Of a stretch of 64,000 nucleotides of DNA, positions 1 through 11,686 are shown one piece after another (within the stretch, counting starts at the first letter, position 1; every line of letters begins with the position of its first letter). Made by a program: the position numbers and the translations under genes. The DNA is from a virus. Below the pieces are notes generated by a model. It was given only the letters and a program-made list of their open reading frames with translations. It ran no database searches and was not told the origin of the DNA. Where the stretch lies: UHGV virus genome UHGV-0091736. One strand, 5' to 3'.

Positions 1-527
1 GCTTCGAGGGTTTCCCTGTTAACCCCCTACTCCCGCAGGATAGTCTCTACACTTTCCACTTTCGAATCCATCTACAAGCGATTCCAAAGCTCACACCAAA
101 CCTTTCTGCAAGAGCAACACCAGTGCATTCATTGTTAAGCCAGAACTCTTTAGCAGCATCCTGTCTTTCTCTATTTCTGCCAGTGTTTGATTCAATAGCA
201 TGTGCACTACCTTCTAAGATTTCTAGATGGTCAGTATTACAACAAGCTCTATTCTTGCATTTATGGTTAACTTCATAACCGTCAGGAATTTTTCCAAATT
301 CCTCTTCCATGACGTATCTGTGATACATGACCCATTTGCCATTTATCACTTTTCGAAAGTAACCGTCTTTATTTAATTTGTGTGAGATAGGGATGATACA
401 TCCTGTGCTAGTTGTTTCTAGCACTAGATCTTTCTTAGCCATATCACCTCCTAATAGCTTAGCTCGGTATTGCCCTCAACTTAATGGTCGGGTTTCACCG
501 AGTTCACCAACTTTTACATGCACAATG
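1..527 (-). mobile_element. putative group I-type intron in the DNA polymerase gene (partial, runs off window start); carries HNH ORF 47-442
   Basis: Pol ORF loses similarity to T7 gp5 just before motif C (HDE) and ends HCACKSW*; DNA at the break (TGTGCATGTAAAAGTTGGTGAACTCGGTGAAA...GAGCTAAGCTA) closely matches DNA at the primase-helicase break (12440-12548). Confidence 0.5.
47..442 (-). CDS. HNH homing endonuclease (intron-encoded)
   Basis: 131 aa; His-Me finger motif EVNHKCKNRACCNTDHLE; SD AGGAGG upstream; sits inside the polymerase insertion. Confidence 0.7.
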   Translation of the reverse strand: MAKKDLVLETTSTGCIIPISHKLNKDGYFRKVINGKWVMYHRYVMEEEFGKIPDGYEVNHKCKNRACCNTDHLEILEGSAHAIESNTGRNRERQDAAKEFWLNNECTGVALAERFGVSFGIACRWIRKWKV

Positions 528-2225
528 AAGTTTATGCATATCAATTACCTTAGCACAACGAACTCCATCCTTCTCAATCCACTTGTTAAGGAACATCATA
601 GCGTATTTCATAACAACAGCACCAGCACATTGCAGGAGTGTGTTAAGTGCTTTATGAACCATAACTTTACCAGTGGCATCTCGTCTCATTGTAATCTTGC
701 GACCATCAACACCAATCAAGTACCCTTGAGCAGCTTTCTCTGTCATGCGATCAATGAGGATTGCAATACATGGGTTCTCTGCCAAGAAACGTGCTCGCAT
801 CACTGAACCTTCATCAGCCCCGCCACCTACAATTGAACCAAGCTTAGCATCACCAGCACCATAGTTGAATGCATAGATAAATGTCTTAGCATTGTCACGA
901 GTAGGGAGACCAGCAAGTTTCTGGTTGTGGGAGTGGATATCCCCTTCGAGGAGAATATCACGATACATAATAGCAGAAGCTAAACCGCGTTCTGCCAGAG
1001 CTTTCTTAGCTGGATTATTCTCTTCGATTGCTTCAGCAAGCATATCTCTACATTCTTTGATGAGGTAGTGAGCGAGCATACGAAGTTCAAGTCCAGAACC
1101 ATCATACCCTAAGAATACTTCTTTACCAGCGGGTATGTAATATTTGTAAGCACCTACAGGTTTGTCTTTCTTCCCCGGCTTACCTTTCTCGTAAATTACG
1201 TTAGTACCTTTTCGTATATAACAACCATCAGGAACAACGTTAGTAATAACGAAAGGACGAGAGTGATCACTGTCTGAGTTATAGTCAGACTCAAACAAAC
1301 TGCGACACTCGTGACCAAACAAACCACGGGAGGGAATATTAACCACGATACGATGTTTGAATCGAAAAGTCGGCGTAGCGCAGCTGTTAGCTTCTGCCGA
1401 AAGTTTACCATCTTCGCGTTCCTTTGCTATAAGTCCACTGATAAGACCTAGCCTGTGAGCCGCTACAACACGTCTCTTAAGCAAACTTCCAACACTCCCT
1501 AGCTCACCCCCTAACCCTTCTTCAAGAGTCTCCTCGAGGTTTGTAGGAGCTGTAGGCCACTTGTTTGATGTAGCTAGTGCTTTCTTAATCTCATCAAACG
1601 TTACAGGGTTACGGCGATTAGGGTTTAATCCCAAACCAAACACGTAAGCCTTCATGTAATTCTTAGTCTTAAACCTAAAATGCTTTTCTAAGAATTTCTT
1701 GATATCAGCGTCAACCATCTCGGCTGTCTGCTTCTGCTTAGCACTGCCTCTCATCCAAGCAGTGTACCAAGCCTGATATGTTCCATACTTTCGCATGTCT
1801 TTCTTAATTTCGAAAGTATTCCAAGGCTTCTTAGATACGTTAAACTCTGGAGGAAGAAAGCCCTCATCCATAAGAGCTTCTTTAACTCGTGCATCTTTCG
1901 ATGGGTCAAAGTCTACATATTCTACACAGGTGAATGCTCCACCAATGTCTTCTCTCTTCAGCCCAACCCTATCACAATAAGCTTGAGGCCACTTCTGCAA
2001 AGCACCAGACTTCTTAAACGGCTTCATGTAAGTAGAGCCATCTAATCTCATCTTAGGTAAGAGAGGAATCAACTCTCTATCAATATTAACAATAATCTCT
2101 TTAAGGAGGTGAACATACCACCGAGCATTTCTTCGGTTGAAACTCACTCCGTGCTTTGCTTGCTTAGAGATTATATCAGCGACAGTCATCTCTGTCAAAA
2201 ATGGAAGAGCGTCCGGGTTGCTCAC
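504..2225 (-). CDS. DNA polymerase, family A, T7 gp5-like polymerase domain (5' exon; exon probably ends near 525, motif C lies beyond window)
   Basis: 573 aa; motif A YDGSGLELRMLAHYL; motif B RDNAKTFIYAFNYGAGDAKLG; GVDGRKI...HKALNTLLQCAGA matches T7 gp5 C-terminal region; thumb region alignable to T7 thioredoxin-binding segment. Confidence 0.9.
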   Translation of the reverse strand: MSNPDALPFLTEMTVADIISKQAKHGVSFNRRNARWYVHLLKEIIVNIDRELIPLLPKMRLDGSTYMKPFKKSGALQKWPQAYCDRVGLKREDIGGAFTCVEYVDFDPSKDARVKEALMDEGFLPPEFNVSKKPWNTFEIKKDMRKYGTYQAWYTAWMRGSAKQKQTAEMVDADIKKFLEKHFRFKTKNYMKAYVFGLGLNPNRRNPVTFDEIKKALATSNKWPTAPTNLEETLEEGLGGELGSVGSLLKRRVVAAHRLGLISGLIAKEREDGKLSAEANSCATPTFRFKHRIVVNIPSRGLFGHECRSLFESDYNSDSDHSRPFVITNVVPDGCYIRKGTNVIYEKGKPGKKDKPVGAYKYYIPAGKEVFLGYDGSGLELRMLAHYLIKECRDMLAEAIEENNPAKKALAERGLASAIMYRDILLEGDIHSHNQKLAGLPTRDNAKTFIYAFNYGAGDAKLGSIVGGGADEGSVMRARFLAENPCIAILIDRMTEKAAQGYLIGVDGRKITMRRDATGKVMVHKALNTLLQCAGAVVMKYAMMFLNKWIEKDGVRCAKVIDMHKLHCACKSW

Positions 2226-2241
2226 TTTATACTCCTTTGAA

Positions 2242-2646
2242 TTATTGGTAAAGTAAATCTGTAAATGCTTGGTTGTCAGTTATTGCATCTAGGTCATTAT
2301 GAGATACTCGGATAACATTACCTTCAACTCTCCACGGAGTTGGCGTAGGTGAAGACCTAACTTCAAGAGGCTGCTCTCTGACTAAATGGGCCATGACCCT
2401 CTGATTGGCAACTTCCTCTCTTTCTCGAATAGCTCTTTGGATGTAGGCCAGCTTCATGCCCCAAGCTTCTTCAAACTCTTGAGGATGTTTGTCACTGATA
2501 ACCACATACTGACGCTCAGGGATACCAGATCGAATCTCTGATAATAATTCATGGAACAAATCAAGTTCATGTTCAGTGAGATTCATTTCGATATCATCCC
2601 ACTTGAGAACTAAGAAACGGTTTTGATATCTAGTTGGTAATGGCAT
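2242..2646 (-). CDS. hypothetical protein
   Basis: 134 aa ORF, tightly packed with neighbours. Confidence 0.5.
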   Translation of the reverse strand: MPLPTRYQNRFLVLKWDDIEMNLTEHELDLFHELLSEIRSGIPERQYVVISDKHPQEFEEAWGMKLAYIQRAIREREEVANQRVMAHLVREQPLEVRSSPTPTPWRVEGNVIRVSHNDLDAITDNQAFTDLLYQ

Positions 2647-2649
2647 AGC

Positions 2650-9795: not shown

Positions 9796-9816
9796 TCTTA
9801 TTCCTTAGTTATTTGT

Positions 9817-11125
9817 TCACATTTCAAAAGAGATTCCACGACCCGCTTCATCGGCAAACCGAACTGTACGGGTTTGAGGCTCTAATACTTCAGGGTTGTT
9901 GGCAACAAATCGATCAGCGAGGATATCTCCCAAATCTTCTACCCCATCTTCTACCATATCTTCATCAGTCCACACAGTCCTAACCGGTACATCAAAGTCA
10001 CCAGCAGCAAAACCCTGACCGGAGAATTGACGTGCGCCGACAGTAAAGCCATTTGGTCGACCACGAGAAGGTCTAGCCCTCCATCTCTCCATAGAATCAC
10101 TTGTAATACCAAGATCTTCAAAAGAAGCTCTAGGAGGGGAGCTTGCACTTCTCGCCTCTTGTGATCGGCTCATTGCAGGGGCTACAAGAACCCCTTCAAT
10201 TGCGTTGTGTTGGTTAGGTTCATCTTCACGTCCAAGCAGATCTCCACTTGTATTGGTTATTAGATCTGTCAATCCTTCAGACCAATATGCACGAATCTGA
10301 CTGGAGCCATGAATGTTTGACATAACCTGAATCTCTTCATAAGATATACCAAAGAATCGACTCATGTCTCGGTTAACACAATATTGAGCACTTGTTGTAT
10401 CCTCAACAAGAGCAACCTGACCCCATTCATTGATCAGATGACTGACCGGTTGAGGTGTAGGAAGATATCGAGATTGTGCCATATATTGATATGCAACAGA
10501 TGGAGCGGAGAATCTTAATACCTGTGAATTAGGCCACTTCTTATGAACATACTTGATTTCACGACCAGAAACAACTACTGGACAGGGAGAGGTCATAGCC
10601 AAATATCCATGAGGGGTCATGAATAGGTTGTCAAGAGTAATCGCACCACGGCACATCATAGGAAAGCTATCCAACACCTCTTCAACAGAAGTAGGATAGT
10701 TAAACATGAATTGGATACGAACCCCACTCCACTGGAATTCAATAATATCAGTGAAAGTCAACGGAGAACCTTCAGCGTATGGTCCATTTGTGGCCTCAGC
10801 AAGAAGGGATGAATATTCAATATCTTGTGACTCAAGCCACTCCTTAACGTTGCTTTCAACCTCTCTTCCAAGATCTTGCCACTGGTCATGGCGGATATAA
10901 GTATATTCAGTTCTTGGTGTCTGTCCTCTGACAATAAAAATATCAATATCATGCGGAGCTGTATTGTTAAGAACAGCATCACGAACAGCCCCACCAGTGA
11001 TGATAGGACAGATACCGTCTGGAATCAAGTTGTTGTTAATCAACTGTTCAATGAAGTGACGACCAACAGTGATATCAGGTTGTTGAGCAACCTTATCTTC
11101 AATTCGGTTAATCGGGATAACAATC
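9817..11125 (-). CDS. nucleotidyltransferase, CCA-adding enzyme / poly(A) polymerase head-domain family (start likely MIVIP at 11125, not track start 11184)
   Basis: GGAVRDAVLNNTAPHDIDIFIV matches the GG.VRD...D.D signature. Confidence 0.55.
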
Positions 11126-11128
11126 ATT

Positions 11129-11686
11129 TTACATTTTCCAATATAATGAAGGTGGGTCGTAAGGGTCAAATCCTGTGAGTTCACACAAGAAAAGATAAAC
11201 CTTAACAGTTAAGTTAACGTCCTGTTCACAATAAGTAAACATATCTTCAGTGAAAGCATCCCATGCTTCCTCTTGCTCACCGTAATCACCTTTAAGTTCC
11301 TCTAAGAACTCACCCCATTGCTTTAAGCCATGACCTCTTGGGCCATGTCTAGGGTCGCCTTTCGGGTACTCAGGACTGTCACCAATACGGTCAGGTTTAA
11401 GATATCGACTAAGACATAAAGTGTCAAAGACGTTAAAATGATATTCAATCAGATTGGGATACATCTTCTTCAGAGCACAAAGGTCGAAGTCGATAATGTT
11501 ATGACCCACGAGTACATCAGCTTCTGTAAGTTTACGAATCCCATCTTCAATTTGGTGAGGCCGATAGCCCCACCTTTCACCAGTTTCAACATCGAAGATA
11601 TAAATACACCATACTTTAGTTATGTCGTCGTATAGTGCATTACTCTCAATATCGAATGCAAACACTTTCTTCTTTTTCTTTACCAC
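11129..11686 (-). CDS. DNA polymerase 3'-5' exonuclease subunit (T7 gp5 N-terminal-like), separate gene
   Basis: 185 aa; [10 protein letters not shown] (Exo I), [30 protein letters not shown] (Exo III) align to T7 gp5 residues 1-200. Confidence 0.85.

Follow-up and report, generated by a model that had tools for sequence, protein, structure and literature searches.

How does a phage DNA polymerase of the T7 type work when its proofreading exonuclease and its polymerase core are encoded by separate genes? The present study examined this question in UHGV virus genome UHGV-0091736, a stretch of viral DNA of 64,000 nucleotides (nt), the whole of which is called the window below. A preliminary description of the window had claimed that the exonuclease and polymerase genes of a T7-like enzyme lie about 9 kb apart. 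This claim was borne out, and the interval between the two genes is 8.9 kb. The split organization, and its identity with the arrangement known for phage phiEco32, are nearly certain on sequence grounds. We estimate at approximately 60% the probability that the two products form a stable non-covalent heterodimer with proofreading, with a phage-encoded thioredoxin as a possible processivity factor.

In a megablast search of window positions 1-12000 against 50,697 phage records, 99 records matched, nearly all of which were Escherichia phages (Kuravirus). DNA identity to these Kuravirus (phiEco32-like) genomes was 92-93%, by which measure the window is a phiEco32-like coliphage. In phiEco32 coordinates, the right end of the window lies at ~26.7 kb and window position 535 at ~39.7 kb. 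The window covers a genome of ~76-78 kb minus the equivalent of phiEco32 26.7-39.1 kb (~12 kb), which lies to the left of the window.

Separate genes for the exonuclease and polymerase

The features on which the argument rests are as follows.

11129..11686, minus strand: 3'-5' proofreading exonuclease subunit of 185 amino acids (aa), ortholog of phiEco32 gp74 (Pfam, BLASTP, PDB, and PHROGs)
534..2225, minus strand: DNA polymerase exon 1, 564 codons, with the thumb, fingers, palm, and motifs A and B (Pfam, phiEco32 gp53, and T7 gp5)
1..533, minus strand: first 533 of the 607 nt of a group I intron in polymerase motif C (relatives 1-6af and PE006, pairing P1, and comparison with phiEco32)
47..442, minus strand: intron-encoded HNH homing endonuclease, 131 aa (Pfam HNH_3, E 2.9e-12; PHROG 6254)
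2226..11128, minus strand: 8.9-kb interval with 19 minus-strand open reading frames (ORFs) (Pfam; synteny with phiEco32 gp54-gp73)
11680..14090, minus strand: T7 gp4-type primase/helicase gene, which overlaps the start of the exonuclease gene (phiEco32 gp75 ortholog)

The exonuclease ORF (11129-11686) matched the Pfam family DNA_pol_A_exo1 (PF01612) with 34.5 bits against a cut-off of 23.6, and its sole solved-structure matches in a PDB sequence search were T7 gp5 chains (E 1.6e-10). BLASTP aligned it to residues 1-196 of T7 gp5 with 32% identity, and the protein was 97% identical to phiEco32 gp74. The DEDDy exonuclease motifs Exo I (DxE), Exo II (NxxxD), and Exo III (YxxxD) were all present. 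Their residues (D12 and E14 in Exo I; H62, N63, and D68 in Exo II; Y152 and D156 in Exo III) were invariant in the alignment with T7, PaP3, and PKM.Lu.22.1, and D12/E14, N63/D68, and Y152/D156 aligned with T7 D5/E7, N60/D65, and Y170/D174, respectively. In PHROGs, in which several such families exist, the protein matched families named 'DNA polymerase exonuclease subunit' (E 3e-76 and 3e-38). The GTG start codon of the gene overlaps the stop codon of the primase/helicase gene (GTGGTAA) and is preceded by a GGAG Shine-Dalgarno sequence; this overlap suggests that the two genes are translationally coupled. The ORF terminates at its own stop codon.

The polymerase ORF (504-2225) matched the Pfam family DNA_pol_A (PF00476) with 51.6 bits against a cut-off of 34.3, and BLASTP aligned it to T7 gp5 residues ~293-639. 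Exon 1 was 99% identical to residues 1-564 of phiEco32 gp53, and the best PDB match of the full-length gp53 ortholog was T7 gp5 (E 1.2e-32). Motif A residue D375 corresponds to T7 D475, and motif B residues R443, K447, and Y451 correspond to T7 R518, K522, and Y526; all of these columns were invariant across T7, PaP3, PKM.Lu.22.1, and the polymerase of the window. Translation starts with GTG at position 2225, and an AAGGAG Shine-Dalgarno sequence lies 6 nt upstream. The homology to gp53 ends at residue 564 of 614, and the last 50 codons (exon 2) are outside the window. Accordingly, the window holds only His564 of motif C. The Asp and Glu of this motif would belong to exon 2, off the left edge; they directly follow the 607-nt intron in phages 1-6af and PE006. 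Across T7, Kuravirus, PKM.Lu.22.1, and PaP3, the catalytic residues of Exo I-III and of motifs A, B, and C are invariant.

The two products meet at one point of T7 gp5. In the alignments, the exonuclease product ends at approximately T7 residue 205-208 and the polymerase product starts at approximately residue 207-212. The break at T7 residue ~205-210 is therefore located in the interdomain linker, with no loss and no duplication, and the same break point was found in PaP3 and PKM.Lu.22.1. Both genes are under purifying selection; the ratio of nonsynonymous to synonymous substitution rates (dN/dS) relative to phiEco32 was 0.084 for the exonuclease gene and 0.012 for polymerase exon 1. When T7 gp5 was used as the query, neither the window nor the three loci that jointly span the phiEco32 genome contained another family A polymerase, and the phiEco32 annotation lists no other replicative polymerase.

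These results agree with the preliminary description in most respects. It had read ORF 11129-11686 as the N-terminal exonuclease of T7 gp5, with Exo I-III and its own stop codon, and had regarded both ORFs as halves of one T7 gp5-type enzyme; the Pfam match, the BLASTP alignment to residues 1-196, the motif alignment, and the clean break at the linker all support this view. Of the two findings that it had named as contrary to its view, the exonuclease ORF proved to be of the T7 gp5 type (Pfam, PDB, and alignment) rather than of a different nuclease family, and no intact polymerase gene was present elsewhere in the window or the phiEco32 genome. ORF 504-2225 had been taken as a T7-like polymerase with motifs A and B. 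Its further suggestion that a two-subunit polymerase would have to assemble non-covalently is plausible. The identification of ORF 504-2225 was correct, but it does not apply to the whole ORF: window positions 533-504, which are its last 10 codons and stop codon, are intron read-through and not polymerase sequence.

The split polymerase is already known from annotation and the literature and is not new here. RefSeq (NC_010324) describes gp74 as 'DNA polymerase exonuclease subunit; contains 3'-5' exonuclease domain' and gp53 as 'DNA polymerase; lacks 5'-3' and 3'-5' exonuclease domains'. Annotation of the split dates back to 2008 (Savalia et al. 2008, as cited in PMC3517423), and the split was restated in 2012 and 2023. 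The separation of the exonuclease and polymerase has been published as common to all phages of the Kuravirus group, in a statement that names Salmonella phage 7-11, Proteus phage Privateer, Vibrio phage Vp_R1, and Aeromonas phage BUCT695. According to PMC3517423, the polymerase is likewise split in the LUZ24 group and in phiEco32. In the genome studied here, the polymerase gene additionally consists of two exons, and thus the enzyme is encoded in three DNA segments: the exonuclease gene and polymerase exons 1 and 2.

Two further features of the polymerase gene were noted. Relative to T7 gp5, the protein has an insertion of ~44 aa just before motif A and another of ~25 aa just after it (protein residues ~322-370 and ~390-420). 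The former is common to Kuravirus, PKM.Lu.22.1, and PaP3, whereas the latter is present in PKM.Lu.22.1 and largely absent from PaP3. In addition, the sole perfect sigma-70 consensus promoter of the 64-kb window (TTGACA and TATAAT, separated by 17 nt that include an extended -10 TG) lies at 2198-2170 on the minus strand, within the first 20 polymerase codons. Both phiEco32 and PE006 carry it without a single base change. It may serve as a genuine promoter inside the gene or may simply result from conservation of the coding sequence (FLTEMTVADIIS).

A group I intron in motif C of the polymerase gene

ORF 504-2225 stops inside motif C (VIDMH/DE), a point on which the preliminary description did not remark. 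DNA homology with the intron-less phiEco32 ends at window position 535/534, at ...GAT ATG CAT, the last codon of which encodes the motif C His. Of the 20 best Kuravirus matches, 16 begin exactly at window position 534/535 and four continue to position 1, which indicates a presence/absence polymorphism of the intron. The complete 607-nt intron, which ends in G, together with exon 2 was found in phages 1-6af (97.9% identical) and PE006 (95%). In both, the intron is followed by GATGAG..., which encodes the C terminus of phiEco32 gp53. The remaining 74 nt of the intron and exon 2 (50 codons, DEGQFSV...NWMHTH) of the present genome are beyond the left edge of the window.

The predicted P1 pairs AUGCAU with GUGCAU and places a U.G pair at the splice site; the 5' junction reads AUGCAU/AAAC...GUGCAU and the 3' end reads ...AAAUG/GAUGA. 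The joined exons read VIDMH-DEGQF, as in phiEco32, and the frame is precisely restored. The PE006 copy of the intron matched Rfam RF00028 with 28.7 bits (E 1.5e-4), below the gathering threshold of 50. This sub-threshold score is that of a model disrupted by an ORF and is no evidence against an intron. In the window itself, Rfam matched the polymerase intron neither in the whole-window run at the gathering threshold nor in a permissive run of positions 1-14200, because the window ends 74 nt before the 3' end of the intron and thus truncates it. The core of the PE006 intron was 58% identical to that of a second intron, located in the primase/helicase gene, when their ORFs were left out, and the two have conserved segments in common. 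ORF 47-442 matched PHROG 6254 'HNH endonuclease' (E 2e-41) and is annotated as 'homing endonuclease' in PE006, ECBP2, and SU7. As judged by these features, the insert is a mobile group I intron with an HNH homing endonuclease, and it is predicted to splice.

This intron resembles the 'site 881' introns of phages PhiI, W31, and K1F (gene 5.3). They share insertion after the motif C His, an HNH ORF in a peripheral loop, and 65-69% DNA identity over ~95% of the part of the intron inside the window. According to Bonocora & Shub (2004), as cited in PMC3428280, the introns of PhiI and W31 occupy site 881 (E. coli Pol I numbering), the position of the motif C His. The host genes differ: it is a fused T7-type polymerase gene in those phages and the exonuclease-less Kuravirus polymerase gene here.

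Distribution of the split among phages

In a tblastn search with the exonuclease protein, 2,135 phage records matched, and most of the sampled matches were fused T7-like polymerases with 25-42% identity. Stand-alone exonucleases among the matches were those of Kuravirus, PKM.Lu.22.1 (Grimontviridae, 49%), and PaP3/LUZ24-type phages (33-34%). At least three phage lineages have kept the split. The gene order in PKM.Lu.22.1 is primase/helicase, exonuclease, a 6.4-kb block that includes dcd, phoH, and thyX, and then the polymerase. In PaP3, it is amidoligase, glutamine amidotransferase, gamma-glutamyl cyclotransferase, primase/helicase, exonuclease, six small ORFs (1.7 kb), and the polymerase. The exonuclease gene follows the primase/helicase gene in phiEco32, PKM.Lu.22.1, and PaP3. 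The common break point and common synteny suggest that a T7-like gene 5 was split once, long ago, and we infer that the gap between the halves was later filled with nucleotide-metabolism genes.

The nearest known system is phiEco32 itself, a member of Kuravirus (Gordonclarkvirinae). It has the gp74 and gp53 orthologs described above, an equal break point, and the same order of primase/helicase, exonuclease, nucleotidyltransferase and nucleotide-metabolism genes, and polymerase. However, the polymerase and primase/helicase genes of phiEco32 are uninterrupted, its PhoH has no intein, and no HNH gene lies beside its dcd. The LUZ24/PaP3-like phages (Bruynoghevirus) are also split at the linker between the exonuclease and polymerase, and the halves are annotated as 'DNA polymerase part I (3'-5' exonuclease)' and 'part II'. 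Their exonuclease gene likewise comes directly after the primase/helicase gene, but protein identity is only 33-34%, and the two genes are 1.7 kb apart with six small ORFs between them, whereas the 8.9-kb interval here contains nucleotide-metabolism genes. The LUZ24 polymerase gene also bears an intron (PMC3517423). The set of amidoligase, glutamine amidotransferase, and gamma-glutamyl cyclotransferase genes upstream of the primase/helicase gene is common to Kuravirus and the PaP3-like phages, and thus the whole replication module appears to be related between these groups.

T7 gp5 is the closest solved structure for both halves. Exo I-III and motifs A-C are equal in the two systems, and a primase/helicase gene lies upstream in both. 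In contrast, T7 gp5 is a single polypeptide of 704 aa that works with host thioredoxin, whereas the thioredoxin here is encoded by the phage.

Possible assembly of the two products

Features that bear on the expression and working of the two halves are as follows.

3618-3610, minus strand: gp36-type middle promoter motif TAATGTATA, upstream of the gene 58 homolog
8528-8520, minus strand: gp36-type middle promoter motif AAATGTATA, upstream of the gene 68 homolog
3252-3229 and 7588-7561, minus strand: terminator-like hairpins, both within the 2226-11128 interval
6906-7184, minus strand: thioredoxin (Pfam Thioredoxin, E 1.7e-13)

Positions of these promoters have been published (PMC8948821).

We propose that the split enzyme would work in the following manner. 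The exonuclease (185 aa) would be translated in step with the primase/helicase through the overlapping stop and start codons, while the polymerase core (614 aa), encoded 8.9 kb downstream, would be expressed behind its own middle promoter. Removal of the intron from the mRNA by splicing would restore the H-D-E motif of the polymerase. The exonuclease and polymerase would then bind non-covalently and re-create the exonuclease-polymerase architecture of T7 gp5, in which the bound exonuclease would edit the errors of the polymerase, as epsilon does for alpha in E. coli Pol III. In E. coli, alpha (DnaE) and epsilon (DnaQ) form an experimentally established non-covalent complex. The Pol III core is a functional analogy, in that a polymerase and a DEDD exonuclease are separate gene products. 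However, its polymerase belongs to the unrelated family C, and the complex is established there and only inferred for Kuravirus.

By analogy with T7 gp5 and host thioredoxin, the phage thioredoxin (6906-7184) may act as the processivity factor and is a candidate partner of the polymerase. In the polymerase, the part of the thioredoxin-binding loop formed by T7 residues ~258-282 is missing, and a segment aligning to T7 residues ~283-357 of the thioredoxin-binding region is retained. A phage thioredoxin has also been hypothesized as the processivity factor of the related phage Privateer (PMC7881722).

Several points weigh against a stable heterodimer. The literature searched gave no physical or genetic evidence for an exonuclease-polymerase complex, and searches for biochemical work on a phage 'DNA polymerase exonuclease subunit' yielded genome reports only. 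Two middle promoter motifs and two terminator-like hairpins separate the two genes, and the exonuclease gene overlaps, and seems to be translationally coupled to, the primase/helicase gene. Expression of the halves is therefore not obviously stoichiometric, and non-stoichiometric expression fits a looser or different partnership equally well. Furthermore, the isolated Klenow polymerase domain is active without the exonuclease domain, and replication therefore does not strictly need the two products to assemble.

The most serious alternative, although we regard it as less likely than the heterodimer, is that no stable holoenzyme forms. The exonuclease would then be a free 3'-end editor, be borne by the helicase, or serve in other 3'-end processing (recombination, repair, or nucleotide salvage), and the polymerase would be intrinsically exonuclease-minus. 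The overlap of the exonuclease start with the helicase stop and the adjacency of the two genes in three lineages are consistent with this alternative. The polymerase gene also lies in a different transcription unit, behind the middle promoter motif of gene 58, and the distance between the exonuclease and polymerase genes varies from 1.7 to 8.9 kb, which suggests no selection for co-expression. However, the exonuclease is the exonuclease domain of a family A polymerase, the closest fused relatives of which are T7-like (32-42%), and not a generic DnaQ/RNase T protein. The break falls exactly at the linker, and hence the packing surfaces of T7 gp5 are kept on both halves. Moreover, the exonuclease and polymerase genes co-occur in every lineage examined. 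These points argue against this alternative.

We also considered whether the exonuclease is a replisome subunit delivered by the primase/helicase, and not merely a domain that separated from the polymerase and binds to it again. The exonuclease gene overlaps the primase/helicase gene in at least two of the three lineages examined. Nevertheless, we think it improbable that the exonuclease is delivered in this manner.

Covalent joining of the expressed halves into a single-chain polymerase, whether by a split intein, RNA trans-splicing, or translational bypass, is highly improbable. Splicing elements are abundant in the region, with two group I introns and one putative intein. However, the T7 linker junctions showed no N-intein of ~100 aa, no C-intein of ~35 aa, and no Cys/Ser/Thr +1 context; the two genes have separate Shine-Dalgarno sequences and start codons, and the exonuclease gene also has its own stop codon; 19 ORFs and internal promoter motifs lie between the halves; and no intron-like RNA match flanks either junction. 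A split-intein 'fractured gene' was rejected, as both products end or begin at the T7 linker without extra sequence. An artefact or decaying gene (a misassembly, a frameshift error, or the inactive remnant of an exonuclease) is equally negligible and was rejected on the grounds of conservation and purifying selection: the premature end of ORF 504-2225, which might have hinted at it, is explained by the intron and no specific support was found, whereas the organization is equal in ~99 independently sequenced Kuravirus records and other families, and the exonuclease has a low dN/dS with all catalytic residues intact.

Other mobile elements and intervening genes

The remaining features of the region are as follows.

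14090-12555 and 11934-11680, minus strand: primase/helicase exons (spliced comparison with gp75)
12554-11935, minus strand: 620-nt group I intron in the primase/helicase gene (Rfam RF00028; P1)
12113-12448, minus strand: HNH ORF of the helicase intron, within the 620-nt intron
9817-11130, minus strand: nucleotidyltransferase (Pfam/phiEco32 synteny)
9241-9795, minus strand: dcd (Pfam)
8748-9272, minus strand: free-standing HNH endonuclease gene, 174 aa, between dcd and the downstream small ORFs
7594-8205, minus strand: Dps-like protein (ferritin/Dps; Pfam)
6028-6684, minus strand: thyX (Pfam)
5517-5846, minus strand: Nlig-Ia domain protein, 109 aa (Pfam Nlig-Ia, E 2e-35)
3630-5348, minus strand: phoH, with a putative intein (Pfam and PHROGs)

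The predicted spliced primase/helicase is a protein of 596 aa without internal stop codons and is 99.7% identical to phiEco32 gp75. Its intron matched Rfam RF00028 with 48.6 bits (E 6e-10), just below the gathering score of 50, and its P1 pairs AUGCGU with GCGCAU. None of the 50,697 phage records contained at least 80% of this intron; matches were limited to short core segments, for example in introns of the polymerase genes of KBNP1711, Bas89, and LAMP.

PhoH is 572 aa long, versus 247 aa in phiEco32, owing to an in-frame insert of 325 aa (window 4179-5153, minus strand) that splits the Walker A/P-loop motif (DAPAG/CGKT). The insert begins with Cys and ends with Asn, followed by Cys, as an intein would, and degenerate LAGLIDADG-like motifs were seen by eye. 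Searches of Pfam, NCBIfam, and PDB and a blastn search against phages gave no match to the insert. In PHROGs, it matched the insert-bearing PhoH family phrog_32482 (E 6e-79) and, weakly, a ribonucleotide reductase (RNR) family (E 2.6e-6). An AlphaFold2 single-sequence model of the insert was unusable (mean predicted local distance difference test score of 34.5). We regard the insert as a putative intein in the P-loop.

The free-standing HNH gene overlaps the 3' end of dcd by 32 nt and is absent at the equivalent place in phiEco32; it is the third HNH gene in 13 kb. The mobile elements are the sole parts of the region that are not already described for phiEco32.

The preliminary description had placed about 17 genes, including dcd, dps, trx, thyX, and phoH, between the two halves. 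Pfam identified all five of these, but the interval is tiled by 19 ORFs rather than 17. ORF 5517-5846 consists of the NAD+-binding Ia domain of an NAD-dependent DNA ligase alone; its phiEco32 counterpart is labeled 'DNA ligase' although it has no adenylation domain.

Implications

The split T7-type polymerase is a textbook-level curiosity of phiEco32-like and LUZ24-like phages, and finding it again adds no knowledge. The present genome does call for caution in annotation. Introns cut short the ORFs of the polymerase and primase/helicase genes, and a putative intein enlarges PhoH, such that naive ORF calls mis-describe three genes of the replication module.

If the exonuclease were delivered by the helicase, the replisome of Kuravirus and LUZ24-type phages would be a machine of three or four proteins (helicase-primase, exonuclease, polymerase core, and phage thioredoxin). 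Proofreading would then be organized more like that of cellular Pol III than that of T7, and the split would have allowed independent regulation of fidelity. These phages would be a convenient natural system for examining how far covalent linkage matters for proofreading by family A polymerases.

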